Source: a virus
Virus record (IMG/VR): IMGVR_UViG_3300042731_008413
Location: 1-64,000 of that record
DNA: 64,000 bases
Direction: 5' to 3' (one strand)
The position numbers and the translations under genes are program-made. Numbering within the stretch: position 1 is the stretch's first letter; each line of letters opens with the position of its first letter. Shown piece by piece: positions 24,701-30,721 of this stretch. The notes beneath the pieces are model-generated. The model was not told the origin of the DNA and searched no databases. It saw only the letters and a program-made list of their open reading frames with translations.

Positions 24701-27700
24701 ATGGACATTGCTGTTTTTGCACATCACGTTGGGTCTCAGGGTCTTAAGCCATCAGGACAGTATGGCGGTGGGGAACTTTTGACGTTTGGTTGGCTGTCGG
24801 CCTTGCAAAAGTATTACAATGTAATGACCGTAGTGCCGAATGGGGTCTACCCAGCTTTCGATTCGGCCTACGAATACGGCATTGACCTGTCAGGTATCGA
24901 CTGGCGACCAGTGGGGGATACAGCCGACTGGATTCGGAAATATGATTGCCTGATAAACATCAGCCACAGTAGCTATATGCCCCCTATCTGCCAGCGCAAT
25001 ATTATGGTGACGATGTTCCCCCAACAGCCGGATTGGGATACGTCCGGCTACGATACTATTTGCGCTATCAGTCAATTTTCGGCGGACTGGATCAAGCGAT
25101 ATTGGGGTCGTGAAGCCAAAGTGGTTTATCCCCTTCTACCGGTGCAAGATACCATCGACAGAATCGAGCAAGCCGGCTACGAGAAGCAAAACAACATTGT
25201 AGCCATTGGCCGATTCTTTAACGTGCCGTGGGGTAATAACAAGAGTCACAGTACGTTGATCTCGGCTTTTCAGGGGATGTATAAAGGTGATTGGGCCTTG
25301 ACGTTTGTAGGGTCGGTCCAGGATCAGAAATATCTTCAAGAAGTCAAGCAAGCGGCCAATGGTGACCAGCGCATAAAGTTTTTTCGCGATCTCAAGCGGG
25401 AGCAATATCTGGAACTGTTGGGTAAGTCCAGGTTTTTGTGGCACGCGGCAGGATATGAAGCCACCAAACCATCTTCAATGGAGCATTTCGGGATTATTGC
25501 GGTAGAAGCTCAAGCCGCGGGCACCCAGCCATTTGTATTCAATGGAGGTGGTATTGTTGAGATACCTGGGGTTATTCCCTGGGACACTCCGGCCCAACTG
25601 AGTGAATACACCGTGGTTGAAATCGAAAAGCCAACCCCCAACCCGATGCAAGAAAATGCCCTGACTTTTGACATCGAACGTAATACCGAACGGCTTTTGG
25701 AAATTATCGAGGACCCTCAAGTGGTTGTTGTTCCCAAACCTGAGCAAGCCAAGATTTATGTGGGTGACCCCCATCCCAATGACATCAAAGTAGGGGTGAT
25801 TTCAGATGATCCCAACATCACCACTGGCTTTGGGGCGGTTAGTCGAGCAGTTGTTAAGGGACTGATTAAGCGGGGTTTTCGGGTGGCTGCAATGGGTATC
25901 CAGAACCCCATCGTCGGCAAGACCAAATTGGTACCAGAAGACATCAGACGAATCTTCGGAGAAGTAGTCAATAATCCCCAACTCCCCACAGCCAAAATGA
26001 TGACTCGGGTGTTCGAGGAGAAGTTATCTGAACTGGAATTGTGTACCACCTGGCGGGGCTGTTCCCACGATCCCTCCGGGTTTGATATGATCGAGCAGTT
26101 CCTTAAAATCGAGAAGCCGGACGTGCTTTATATCAATTACGACCCCGGCAACATTCGTAACATCCTGAATGGTATCCAGGATGCCCATGTTGACATCCCT
26201 ATCGTGGCTTATGTCCCCATCGAGGGTAGCCCGGTCATCCCCCAATACATCGAGATGTTACGAACCATTAAGGTGATGAATGGGGAGCCGATTGTCTATA
26301 CCTATGCCGGGCAGAGGGCGGTAATGGAGGCTGGTGGACCAAAATGCAGGGTAGCTCATCACGGTTGTTTTTCTGGTGATACACTAATTACTTTAAGTGA
26401 TGGATCGAAAAAACGCATAGATCGCATTGTGGCAGATAAAGATCATAGTGTTTTGGGGACACATAATGGCAACCCGGTTATTTCTTGTGTTTATGATTGG
26501 ATGACTATCCCAATGATGGATAGTCATATATTAAAAATAACTTTTGACACCGGCGATACATTAAGAGTTACGCGAGATAACCTAGTTTTTACCCAAGATG
26601 GATGGATTAAAGCAAATGATTTGGTGGTCGGTAGTAGGTGTGGTATAATCAATACTAGTACACCACACGCAAATGGAGACTATGATGCCAAATCAAAAAA
26701 TATGGACCAAAGACGAGGAGAGTTGGTTGAAGGCCAATTATCCTACAATGACTCAAACCGATTTGAAAAAGTCATTGGGGAGAACTTGGCCCTCAATAAA
26801 AAGAAAGGCGCAAAGACTGGGCTTATACAGGGAAATAAAAAATCATCACAGAAGATGGACCAAAAAAGACTTGGATTGGCTCAAGTGGAATTACCCTTAT
26901 CTGGATCAAGAAAAGATAGAATCTCACTTAGGGCGAAAATGGAGAGCAATTCAAATAGCAGCCAGGAAAATGGGGGTAGCCAGAACAAACTCCGCCGTGT
27001 ATCAAAAGTCAATAGATCAAAGGCCAAAACTAACATCGGAAGATTGGGCTTATTTGGCTGGAATAATCGATGGAGAAGGTCATTTGACGTTATCAAAAAG
27101 CAATCGAAAAAGTGGTTTTGTTTTGTCTCCAAAGATAGGGGTGGCAAATCAAAGCAAGGCTTTGATGGATTGGATAGTTTTGTCTCTTCCTGTTTATGTT
27201 CATTGCGACAATGGTGTAGAATCTGGGTGGGGGTGGTGTTACCGAGCGCAGATAATTGGGTTCAAGGTAATTCATGTATTAAATGGTATTCTTCCATATA
27301 TGAAAATAAAAAAAGAAAGATGCAAGATTCTGATTTCTTTTTGCGAAAGAAGAATGGCTTTGGGGAATCAGGAACCGTATTCAGAACAAGATTTAGAGGA
27401 TTACCAGAAGATGAAAAAACTAAACTCAAAAAAGGCTTTTCGGTCTCTTGGGGAGTGATAACAAATATCGAATTGGATCACGAATCGATAGTCTACGATC
27501 TGAAAACTAGTACAAGTAATTTTGTTGCAAATAATATTGTTGTTCACAATTGCGATCACGCCCCGTTCAGGATGCTTGACCCGGAAACCCGCAAGCAGTT
27601 AAAAATCGCTTGTGGGTGGGGCAATAAAAAGGTAATGATGTTTGTGGGGCGCAATAAGCGTACCAAGGGTTTTGGAACACTCCTTAAAACGGCCAGAATC

Positions 27701-28342
27701 CTCAAGGATATGGGCCGGGATGACATCGTGTGGTATCTCCATACCTGGGTCTGGGACCAGATGCCCAACTCCTCGATGCCCCTGGATCAATGGGCAAAGC
27801 AGTATGGGATAGCTGATCGAGTAATGTTTCCCGAAATTCAACACCAGGTCTACGGCATCCCCTATGATGAGCCAGCCACCCACCCCCACATCGATGAGAA
27901 CGAATTGGCCCAGATGAGTGAGCAAGACGCGGCCAGGAAACTGGCCAGGATTGCCTTTAACTCTCTGTCGCTTATCGAGCGATATGGTATAGCTACCGCG
28001 TTTATCAACGCTTCTGAAGTTGAGGGGCATGGCTTGACATACTTGGAAGCAATGGGTTGCGGGGTGCCGGTAATCAGCGTCGATGACCAGGGAGTTCAGC
28101 AGGAGGTCATCGGGGACGCGGCCCTGTATGTTCCGGTCAAACATTGGGATGATTTTCATACCGGAGCAAGATTGGCTCAGGGTGATCCCCAGGACTTTGC
28201 CAGGGCTATCATCGACCTGGTTGATAACCAGGATTTGTATAACGAAATGCAACAGAAGGCTCTGGAACGGTATCAACAGTTTAAGTGGGATAAGACGATT
28301 GATATTATCGCCAAAGCTATCATTGAAAGGTACGTGGTATGA
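24701..28342 (+). CDS. tandem GT4-GT4 glycosyltransferase containing an intein
   Basis: EHFGIIAVEA (first GT-B), TGFG..., FVGRN..KG, EGHGLTYLEAMGCG (second GT-B). Confidence 0.85.
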   Translation: MDIAVFAHHVGSQGLKPSGQYGGGELLTFGWLSALQKYYNVMTVVPNGVYPAFDSAYEYGIDLSGIDWRPVGDTADWIRKYDCLINISHSSYMPPICQRNIMVTMFPQQPDWDTSGYDTICAISQFSADWIKRYWGREAKVVYPLLPVQDTIDRIEQAGYEKQNNIVAIGRFFNVPWGNNKSHSTLISAFQGMYKGDWALTFVGSVQDQKYLQEVKQAANGDQRIKFFRDLKREQYLELLGKSRFLWHAAGYEATKPSSMEHFGIIAVEAQAAGTQPFVFNGGGIVEIPGVIPWDTPAQLSEYTVVEIEKPTPNPMQENALTFDIERNTERLLEIIEDPQVVVVPKPEQAKIYVGDPHPNDIKVGVISDDPNITTGFGAVSRAVVKGLIKRGFRVAAMGIQNPIVGKTKLVPEDIRRIFGEVVNNPQLPTAKMMTRVFEEKLSELELCTTWRGCSHDPSGFDMIEQFLKIEKPDVLYINYDPGNIRNILNGIQDAHVDIPIVAYVPIEGSPVIPQYIEMLRTIKVMNGEPIVYTYAGQRAVMEAGGPKCRVAHHGCFSGDTLITLSDGSKKRIDRIVADKDHSVLGTHNGNPVISCVYDWMTIPMMDSHILKITFDTGDTLRVTRDNLVFTQDGWIKANDLVVGSRCGIINTSTPHANGDYDAKSKNMDQRRGELVEGQLSYNDSNRFEKVIGENLALNKKKGAKTGLIQGNKKSSQKMDQKRLGLAQVELPLSGSRKDRISLRAKMESNSNSSQENGGSQNKLRRVSKVNRSKAKTNIGRLGLFGWNNRWRRSFDVIKKQSKKWFCFVSKDRGGKSKQGFDGLDSFVSSCLCSLRQWCRIWVGVVLPSADNWVQGNSCIKWYSSIYENKKRKMQDSDFFLRKKNGFGESGTVFRTRFRGLPEDEKTKLKKGFSVSWGVITNIELDHESIVYDLKTSTSNFVANNIVVHNCDHAPFRMLDPETRKQLKIACGWGNKKVMMFVGRNKRTKGFGTLLKTARILKDMGRDDIVWYLHTWVWDQMPNSSMPLDQWAKQYGIADRVMFPEIQHQVYGIPYDEPATHPHIDENELAQMSEQDAARKLARIAFNSLSLIERYGIATAFINASEVEGHGLTYLEAMGCGVPVISVDDQGVQQEVIGDAALYVPVKHWDDFHTGARLAQGDPQDFARAIIDLVDNQDLYNEMQQKALERYQQFKWDKTIDIIAKAIIERYVV
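26366..27550 (+). mobile_element. intein (395 aa, residues 556-950)
   Basis: HHG|CFSGDTLI block A; VYDL...NFVANNIVVHN|C blocks F/G with Cys+1; visibly more AT-rich than the flanks. Confidence 0.9.
26673..27458 (+). CDS. LAGLIDADG homing endonuclease with N-terminal Myb-like repeats, in an alternate frame inside the intein
   Basis: WAYLAGIIDGEG; two WT..E/D...L..NYP repeats; GGAGA RBS favours start 26682/26685; TGgTATAAT at 26641-26649. Confidence 0.85.
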   Translation: METMMPNQKIWTKDEESWLKANYPTMTQTDLKKSLGRTWPSIKRKAQRLGLYREIKNHHRRWTKKDLDWLKWNYPYLDQEKIESHLGRKWRAIQIAARKMGVARTNSAVYQKSIDQRPKLTSEDWAYLAGIIDGEGHLTLSKSNRKSGFVLSPKIGVANQSKALMDWIVLSLPVYVHCDNGVESGWGWCYRAQIIGFKVIHVLNGILPYMKIKKERCKILISFCERRMALGNQEPYSEQDLEDYQKMKKLNSKKAFRSLGE

Positions 28343-29335: not shown

Positions 29336-30721
29336 TTAGAGACCAAAACTGGTCGGTCCATTTTGGTCTATATCGTCCAATGCCGCCTGCAAGAGCGGTC
29401 CCACCCTCGGCCATTGCTCATTGGCAACGACTGCATTGAACGTTCCATCTTCGATACAGGTTGCTAAAAATGCGCTATATAAATCTCTTTGAACCACCTC
29501 CCCATCATCGAATTTATGCCATCTTTGCGACAAAGACTTCTTTTTGAATTCGCCGGTTTTGTGGTCTAGCTGGCTCAGTTTTGTGCTATAGGTAGAGAAC
29601 TCTTCAACTAGACCGTCATAATCATCCATCTTTTGCTTCAGCCGGGCTACAAACATCCCCGGAGCACGCATGCCAACGGATTTTCCGAACATCTTTTGAA
29701 ATGCAACGTAAGACAACTTTTCCAAACGGATTACGTTACCCATTTGGAGAATCTGGTTGATTAGTTGTCCGTGTAGCGACTTGCGGTATTCTGCTTGTTT
29801 CCTTTTTAATTCGCTTAATTTTATTTCGGTCTTTAGTTGCCTATTTGATTTTACCCATCGTTTGAGTTGCGAACGTGGTTTAACGGTTCCATCTGTGTTG
29901 TAATTGTCAGGGTTGTTAGCGCGCCGTTGTCGGTCTACCTTACGTTGTAATAGTCGTATATCTCGTTGAATATCCTCTAGTTCCGCGCAGAATTGTTTTA
30001 GAAACGCCATATCTTGAGAAACAACAGCGACAGTTGAGGGGCCGATGTCCAACCCAACAACACCTTTCCCAAGAGAATGTCTTTTGTATGGTTTGCCTAC
30101 ATTGACGAGTTGAGCAAAGAACCTGGTTTTTCCATTGAGTTCACGACGAATCAACCGGACAAATTTTATTTCAGAATTCAGGCCATGAGACATTATCGGG
30201 TCATCGTAATCTATAATAGCCTCAAGTTTGATCTTCTTCCCGTTGCGCCCGGAATTCCACACAACACAGTCATCTCTCCAAATAATGCCTTGTAAATTCG
30301 TTACTCCCTCAACCGAATTTAACTGCCCAAACCTTTTGAATTTTGGCCTCCCCCTTTTTGGGTCAAACAAATATTCGCTCACCCAGGTAAAAGCCCTGGA
30401 TGCCAGTTTTTTAATGGTCTGACTGTCTAAATGATAACCTAACCAGGAGTAACCAAATTGTTTAGCGAAGAAATGAATGTCGTATTCCCTAAACCCAAAT
30501 TCTTTGTTGAGCCTGACAAATTCAGCGGTTCTTTCTTTGCCTTTTGGGAGTAGTCGAGCCTTTTGCCAATCCTTTGATTCCCTCATCAACTTCAAGCGGC
30601 GAAGGGATTCGCCCAAGCAAGCATTATAGACCTGCCTGGCCGCCTCAAAACGCTTATTGAGTACAGACTCCTGAGTGGGGGTTGCTTTTAGGGGGATTTC
30701 GGTAATAAATCTATCAGACAT
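29336..30721 (-). CDS. tnpB: TnpB/Cas12f-like RNA-guided RuvC nuclease (461 aa)
   Basis: AARQVYNACL N-terminal motif; RuvC D (GLDIG), E (RLEKL), D (QRDLYSA) all present; no tnpA nearby. Confidence 0.9.
   Translation of the reverse strand: MSDRFITEIPLKATPTQESVLNKRFEAARQVYNACLGESLRRLKLMRESKDWQKARLLPKGKERTAEFVRLNKEFGFREYDIHFFAKQFGYSWLGYHLDSQTIKKLASRAFTWVSEYLFDPKRGRPKFKRFGQLNSVEGVTNLQGIIWRDDCVVWNSGRNGKKIKLEAIIDYDDPIMSHGLNSEIKFVRLIRRELNGKTRFFAQLVNVGKPYKRHSLGKGVVGLDIGPSTVAVVSQDMAFLKQFCAELEDIQRDIRLLQRKVDRQRRANNPDNYNTDGTVKPRSQLKRWVKSNRQLKTEIKLSELKRKQAEYRKSLHGQLINQILQMGNVIRLEKLSYVAFQKMFGKSVGMRAPGMFVARLKQKMDDYDGLVEEFSTYSTKLSQLDHKTGEFKKKSLSQRWHKFDDGEVVQRDLYSAFLATCIEDGTFNAVVANEQWPRVGPLLQAALDDIDQNGPTSFGL

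Follow-up and report, generated by a model that had tools for sequence, protein, structure and literature searches.

The window analysed here, that is, the whole stretch of 64,000 nucleotides (nt) at positions 1 to 64,000 of the IMG/VR virus record IMGVR_UViG_3300042731_008413, belongs to a record that is complete at 83,420 bp with direct terminal repeats. On its plus strand, to which all coordinates below refer unless stated otherwise, the window carries a gene for a tandem GT4 glycosyltransferase precursor with an intein in the second GT4 module. The central part of the intein is also open in the +1 frame, where it encodes a LAGLIDADG endonuclease that is presumably a homing enzyme.

Host gene, intein and nested endonuclease gene

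The host gene (24701-28342) is one uninterrupted open reading frame (ORF) of 1213 codons with zero stops, and its product matches Pfam PF00534 (Glycos_transf_1) at 8.5e-32. A homolog of 430 amino acids (aa) without intein, P0017, aligns to host residues 364-541 in the N-extein and 951-1207 in the C-extein. At the junction P0017 reads ...EFG|LDHAPFR, and the window has ...HHG, 395 inserted aa, and then CDHAPFR. Since P0017 has no insert at this point, the insertion in the window is exactly intein-sized and intein-placed.

P0017 matches the second GT4 module (25790-28342) only, from residue 364 onward. The first GT4-like module (24701-25790) may be a separate enzyme that has been fused to the second one.

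The intein (26366-27550) was delimited by Pfam and TIGR matches and by the comparison with P0017. It comprises 395 codons, from CFSGDT, which begins with Cys1, to VVHN, and is followed by Cys+1 at 27551. As the sequence-only reading of this DNA had stated, the intein frame has no stop over its whole length; the third frame has 44. PF14890 (Intein_splicing) matches the whole protein at 38.1 bits and the intein alone at 42.3 bits (cut-off 35.8), and TIGR01445 (intein_Nterm) matches the intein at 24.6 against a cut-off of 24.5. In addition, the solved DnaB mini-inteins 4o1r and 1mi8 give local sequence matches (E about 0.005), with their C-termini matched too. Both nucleophiles, Cys1 (26366-26368) and Cys+1 (27551-27553), are present, as is H394-N395 of block G, and Cys1 and the His-Asn pair are invariant across 17 related inteins (alignment A3). 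No second intein was found elsewhere in this genome.

In an AlphaFold2 model made with the 17 related inteins, residues 1-99 and 356-395 are beta-rich, with a block-mean predicted local distance difference test score (pLDDT) of 78-97. The N-terminal splicing region (residues 1-99, 26366-26662), placed by pLDDT and by alignment with 16 related inteins, contains block A, CFSGDT, and a block B that reads TRDN for TxxH. The C-terminal splicing region (residues 356-395, 27431-27550; ...IVYDLKTSTSNFVANNIVVHN) has pLDDT values of 94-96 and resembles the C-termini of the DnaB mini-inteins. Between the two, residues 100-353 (26663-27424) are a stop-free read-through rich in Lys, Ser, Gly and Arg with pLDDT below 50, which is predicted to be a disordered linker. 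The earlier remark that the centre of the intein frame holds no recognisable motif agrees with this prediction and with the lack of conservation among relatives described below.

The open part of the +1 frame spans 26649 to 27455 only, ends at tandem stops (27456 and 27459) and is nested wholly within 26366-27550. Counted from its first ATG, the predicted homing-endonuclease gene (26673-27458) has 261 codons, ending in TGA (27456-27458) followed by TAA; its assignment draws on the ORF, the relatives, the fold and phrog_5046. The frame has ATGs at 26673, 26682 and 26685, the last of which is the likely translation start. A Shine-Dalgarno-like GGAGA (26675-26679) places its GGAG (26675-26678) 6 nt before ATG 26685, in agreement with the ribosome-binding site proposed for the gene earlier.

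The LAGLIDADG motif of the endonuclease, AYLAGIIDGEG (residues 126-136, 27048-27080), includes the acidic residue E135. In an alignment of 25 sequences, A126, Y127, L128, A129, G130, D133 and G134 of the motif are invariant, as are P208 and K213 outside it, and E135 and G136 are conserved at 90% or more, E135 being Asp in the archaeal element L085. We take E135 and K213 to correspond to Asp20 and Lys98 of I-CreI. Upstream of the motif lie two three-helix repeats of about 45 aa (26700-26972; W-T-K-x-E/D...L-G), presumably a DNA-binding module, which are supported by an AlphaFold2 model and by matches to phrog_323 and phrog_1891. This model, made with the 25-sequence alignment, has a mean pLDDT of 88.1 and consists of two three-helix bundles (helices 13-22, 28-35 and 39-48; 64-73, 79-86 and 90-99) followed by an alpha-beta-beta-alpha-beta-beta-alpha core. 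In Foldseek comparisons the core matches three homodimeric enzymes with a single motif each, I-CreI, I-MsoI and I-CvuI, at a probability of 1.00 and a target template-modelling score of 0.70-0.74 over about 143 residues (root-mean-square deviation 2.4-2.8 Å), and among the PHROGs phrog_5046 matches it at 5.6e-14. The identification of a LAGLIDADG enzyme with repeats in this frame, made in the sequence-only reading, is thus upheld by the motif, the I-CreI-like fold and the two three-helix repeats.

Database relatives of the endonuclease are 200-330 aa long with the same start and end positions, one to three N-terminal W-T-x-x-E...L-G repeats and a single AYLAGIIDGEG, and the three closest of them (P0001-P0003) carry PF14528 (LAGLIDADG_3). 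A search of 5.8 billion proteins returned no entry for the window endonuclease itself, the top match being 31% identical.

The N-terminal repeats (26685-26975) also share 29% identity with the start of the HNH gene, or methylase insertion, of Thibault-type mycobacteriophages (H14-H22). The same DNA-binding module is thus joined to two different nucleases, both out of frame within host genes.

Recurrence of the layout and selection on the two frames

NNT and NNC codons are always synonymous, and the only source of a stop in the intein frame is an endonuclease codon with T at its third position directly before a codon beginning with AA, AG or GA. Before such codons, none of 85 endonuclease codons ends in T, as against 69 of 176 elsewhere (Fisher p = 7e-15). 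When the gene was shuffled in 20,000 trials each, synonymous-codon shuffles gave a mean of 17 intein-frame stops and codon-order shuffles a mean of 22, and neither ever gave fewer than 7. With 17-22 stops expected and none observed, the intein frame is evidently kept open by selection.

When viral, genome and metagenome collections were scanned in six frames with alignments, 240 loci were obtained, and the 80 genome loci among them include no cyanobacterium. Single-protein scans of viral contigs with the endonuclease or the whole host protein found no relative; the alignment-based scans succeeded. Besides the window, 19 further distinct elements have an endonuclease ORF wholly within a longer ORF with intein termini, always at host frame +1. 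They lie on viral contigs (L002, L003, L005, L007, L013 and L030), on archaeal contigs from metagenome-assembled genomes (L082 and L085) and on metagenome contigs (L162, L163, L166, L168, L170, L173, L175, L177, L180, L192 and L214). Among ten hosts scanned with Pfam, five are GT4 glycosyltransferases, one is a DUF5131 protein, two have no host-domain match, and DUF2201 metallopeptidase/VWA proteins are represented as well; GT4-like junction motifs also occur in several hosts outside these ten. GT4 genes have been invaded at three or more different sites, and the site used in the window is shared with L002. The GC-rich loci L093, L113, L118, L147, L151, L160 and L161, in which chance keeps a second frame open, were considered as nested elements and rejected, as they show T before AA, AG or GA or only partial cover, and no intein.

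The codon signature holds throughout the group. Pooled over the 20 nested elements, T-ending codons number 0 of 1253 before AA, AG or GA and 882 of 3506 elsewhere, and each element is at zero. By comparison, 1891 of 6383 codons before AA, AG or GA end in T in 116 non-nested relatives, none of which is at zero.

The sequence-only reading had held that a stretch staying open in two frames implies selection, and had named conservation by codon position and frame across homologs as a check. As a proxy, in place of the window's own copy, for the ratio of nonsynonymous to synonymous substitution (dN/dS), we used diverged relatives together with the closer pair L030 and L214. When the 20 elements are compared in the endonuclease frame, all 190 pairs are similar at E<1e-5 (median 68.6 bits); the same DNA in the intein frame reaches this level in 4 of 190 pairs (median 17.7 bits). 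The closest pair, L030 and L214, differs at 46, 30 and 95 sites at endonuclease codon positions 1, 2 and 3, which, seen from the intein frame, is the reverse of a protein-constrained pattern. Both the implication and the check thus turned out in favour of the earlier argument. On the strength of these sequence comparisons, the double coding is real and selection acts on both frames, at the protein level on the endonuclease and for openness only on the overlapped part of the intein. For the window element, which has no close relative, we infer selection in the endonuclease frame from the fact that the ORF is intact, from residue conservation and from what the relatives show.

We also considered whether the intein-frame insert has a function and rejected this, given the lack of conservation and the low pLDDT; the one feature shared among relatives, an RWRG pseudo-motif, is a coding by-product. 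This pseudo-motif (GL.....RWRG, with an invariant Arg, at intein residues about 226-237 in alignment A3) arises because the underlying DNA is conserved as the coding sequence of AYLAGIIDGEG in the other frame, and motif searches could be misled by it.

In most elements a stop in the endonuclease frame lies 0-10 codons upstream of the ATG that precedes the first conserved repeat; in the window it lies 8 codons ahead of the first ATG. About half of the elements have a strong Shine-Dalgarno sequence, and several relatives lack an obvious one. AGGAGG precedes the start in L173 and L214, GGAGG in L175, and AGGAGG, GGAGG or AGGAG in L030 and L192. Taken together, these start signals favour independent initiation over frameshifting.

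Two further patterns were seen among the relatives. In L013, L082, L175, L177, L168 and L192 the endonuclease ORF ends about 13 codons or fewer from the C-terminal splice junction, so that conserved C-terminal splicing residues are dual-coded; the endonuclease ORF of the window, by comparison, ends shortly ahead of the C-terminal splicing region. In L083 (a metagenome-assembled genome of Archaeoglobaceae) and L174 (a metagenome contig), a relative that covers the full length (query residues 8-251) at 31% identity occurs as a free-standing gene, the other frames are closed and the usage of T at the third codon position is normal. This relative is a candidate for the ancestral, un-nested state.

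Proposed mechanism and alternative explanations

We consider, with a probability of about 85%, that the locus is a mobile composite element made of a splicing intein in a phage GT4 gene and a nested LAGLIDADG endonuclease gene in the +1 frame. The outer parts (residues 1-99 and 356-395) would form a HINT-type splicing domain that excises the 395-residue insert and joins ...AHHG to CDHAPF..., and the inner 786 bases would be a separate +1-frame gene with its own start and Shine-Dalgarno-like site. The product would be a LAGLIDADG homing endonuclease that resembles I-CreI, is presumably a homodimer and has two three-helix repeats for DNA binding at its N-terminus. In co-infections it would cut intein-less glycosyltransferase alleles, the predicted junction being ...CATCACGGT|TGCGATCAC..., and repair would then copy the intein and the endonuclease gene into the cut allele. 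Meanwhile, the host ribosome would stay in the intein frame across the endonuclease gene, and selection would remove every stop-making T; this removal would be free for the endonuclease because of the synonymy of NNT and NNC. The polypeptide made by this read-through would be a disordered linker, not conserved, and would be lost together with the intein.

Several observations weigh against this interpretation. With the His of Thr-x-x-His in block B replaced by Asn, splicing competence is not self-evident. PF14528 scores 13.8 bits on the window endonuclease, under its cut-off of 22.5, and hmmscan at E<=0.01 reported no domain for the LAGLIDADG endonuclease. The searches brought up no close relative for the element in the window; the best one has 33% amino-acid identity. 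Finally, the candidate internal promoter proposed in the sequence-only reading (26621-26649, TTGGTG-17 nt-TATAAT with an upstream TG) is a single consensus match that stands in one part only: TGgTATAAT at 26641-26649 is a perfect extended -10, but the -35 TTGGTG has three of six consensus bases and a consensus promoter scan did not list the site. That the element has an internal promoter, and that homing is uncoupled from host-gene expression, is accordingly put forward here as a hypothesis.

As to block B, inteins without the His are known to splice, so that its absence lowers the confidence in splicing and does not exclude it. TRDN is also found in L002 and L180, THDN in L170, TGDN in L177 and TAES in L030; the other relatives have TxxH. 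From its recurrence in L002, L180, L170 and L177, the Asn variant is probably a working subtype.

The layout could be real and one partner dead in this copy, in that the intein does not splice, with the GT module inactive or tolerating the insert, or that the endonuclease does not cut. Besides the unusual block B, such a relic would fit the absence of a close relative with which selection on the window copy could be measured, and homing-cycle theory predicts decay after fixation (bioRxiv 10.64898/2026.09.14.751524). However, both frames are intact across 786 bases, and the avoidance of stops points to continuing selection for read-through to the C-extein. Cys1, His-Asn and Cys+1 of the intein and D133, E135 and K213 of the endonuclease are all retained, the splicing domain is modelled with good pLDDT, and the persistence of TRDN or TxDN in five diverged elements argues for a working variant; we therefore regard a relic as unlikely. 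Programmed +1 ribosomal frameshifting, which would make the endonuclease as a fusion of N-extein, intein N-domain and endonuclease, is suggested by the overlap of the frames on one strand, by translation of the host mRNA across the site and by those relatives in which no obvious Shine-Dalgarno sequence is seen. Yet the stop shortly upstream of the gene, here and in most relatives, leaves almost no room for a slip site. Nearly every element examined has an ATG ahead of its first conserved repeat, stand-alone relatives start at the same residue, and the window has GGAG 6 nt ahead of ATG 26685, all of which makes this route to the endonuclease very improbable.

The same holds, even more strongly, for an error of sequencing or assembly, by which the endonuclease would truly lie in the intein frame and be displaced by two compensating indels, an outcome that the sequence-only reading had named as its refutation. 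The assembly comparison was made at the level of contigs. A separately built 63-kb contig with a depth of 42, possibly from the source sample, is identical over 25900-28000 without any indel. Moreover, paired indels would leave nothing to hold the other frame open, against the absence of stops described above, and the layout recurs with the same frame offset in 19 more distinct elements from unrelated samples; the ends of the endonuclease coincide with those of stand-alone relatives. An artefact of this kind is hardly credible, and the composite element remains the reading that we prefer.

In a second wetland study, two short, low-depth contigs are identical to the endonuclease region (the comparison spans 25901-26048 and 27136-27480), and an N-extein fragment from the same study shows 17 differences in 148 bases. 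This could mean that the same intein resides in a diverged host gene after recent transfer, or simply that two different phages were sampled.

Known systems and evolutionary implications

The layout itself is already known, from the dnaX intein (1998, as cited) and from related forms in 2025-2026 preprints. The cyanobacterial dnaX intein is described with a same-strand, out-of-frame LAGLIDADG gene in Gorbalenya 1998 as cited in bioRxiv 10.64898/2026.09.14.751524; the citing papers disagree on whether the dnaX endonuclease of that work is antisense or same-strand (bioRxiv 10.64898/2026.09.14.751524; bioRxiv 10.1101/2025.01.02.630785). By the published description, HINT domains flank a same-strand LAGLIDADG gene in a shifted frame in that intein as in the window, the intein frame is open yet predicted to be disordered, and a Shine-Dalgarno sequence stands ahead of the shifted ORF. 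The dnaX preprint (Phillips, DeSimone & Gogarten, bioRxiv 10.64898/2026.09.14.751524) reports frame-dependent selection by FUBAR; purifying selection on the endonuclease frame and none on the overlapped intein frame is a further likeness, as is the proposed origin from a free-standing endonuclease gene that invaded a mini-intein. In contrast, the dnaX host is a bacterial replication gene (DNA polymerase III gamma/tau) and the host here a phage GT4 glycosyltransferase, and the preprint calls the layout rare, whereas 20 distinct elements in at least three host-gene families are found here.

In actinobacteriophage inteins (Gosselin, Arsenault & Gogarten, bioRxiv 10.1101/2025.01.02.630785), the endonuclease ORF is an antisense LAGLIDADG, an antisense Vsr-like or a frame-3 endonuclease VII-like gene, and the authors argue that these inteins were captured by free-standing endonucleases. 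As in the window, a separate endonuclease ORF lies within a phage intein whose in-frame centre is unstructured, and the LAGLIDADG core of the window endonuclease matches the gene that lies antisense within the ThyX gene of Streptomyces phage Gilson. However, the LAGLIDADG genes of that set are antisense and its same-strand case is endonuclease VII-like, unlike the sense-strand +1 LAGLIDADG gene described here, and its hosts are terminase, DNA polymerase, minor capsid protein and ThyX.

The ShiLan insertion represents a hidden out-of-frame HNH gene in mycobacteriophage DNA methylase genes (Arsenault, Gosselin & Gogarten, Genes 2025, PMC11855218). There, too, an out-of-frame endonuclease lies in an insertion through which the host frame reads without a stop, and the N-terminal repeats are those that share 29% identity with the window. 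The ShiLan insertion differs in having no splicing domain and an HNH nuclease, where the window has recognisable intein flanks and a LAGLIDADG enzyme. Fractured genes, attributed to Dassa et al. 2009, are reportedly split inteins with an intervening free-standing endonuclease gene. They resemble the window in that an endonuclease gene of free-standing type occupies the endonuclease insertion point of an intein. The host gene of the window, however, is one continuous ORF of 1213 codons and not two ORFs with intein halves, and the intein would therefore be cis-splicing rather than split. Against this background, the new points are the host-gene family, the commonness of the layout in one endonuclease clade and the codon-level signature.

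In a tree built from 132 endonuclease cores, the nested elements cluster strongly, with 4 changes of state as against 18 with shuffled labels, and a single origin is compatible with every well-supported branch, although the resolution of the tree is poor. Similarity in the N-terminal splicing region correlates weakly with similarity in the endonuclease core (Mantel rho 0.24, 93 of 5000 permutations). From these data, common descent of the composite followed by host-gene switching is possible. A bolder and rather doubtful proposal is that the clade with one to three three-helix repeats and an I-CreI-like core is obligately nested, after a single capture in the +1 frame of a mini-intein, and was then carried with its intein to many sites. 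Its frame would then be fixed because only there can each host-frame stop be taken away by one synonymous T-to-C change. The sites to which such a clade would have spread number at least three in GT4 genes, in addition to DUF2201 and DUF5131 genes, and lie in phages and archaea. If the proposal is true, the nested lineage is an extant form that stands between mini-inteins, canonical inteins and split inteins. The related idea that the +1 offset is the only possible one was weakened: the other sense frame also allows most stops to be removed synonymously, the exception being Met before a codon whose first base is A. Ancestry, and not constraint, may therefore explain why the frame is fixed.

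Because gene callers report just the long ORF, the endonuclease is missing from protein databases and such elements are under-counted. A layout that was published as a rarity occurs also in phage glycan-decoration genes and on archaeal contigs. A simple way to detect it is to ask whether the nested frame lacks NNT before AA, AG and GA, which told all 20 nested elements apart from the 116 non-nested relatives. The findings support the view of intein origin in which splicing came first and the endonuclease was captured later, and they point to compact natural nucleases, predicted to be I-CreI-like, whose target sites are predictable as the intein-less junctions. No new category of biology is opened by the window element.

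Just downstream of the gene cluster, an ORF of 461 aa lies on the opposite strand (29336-30721, minus strand).

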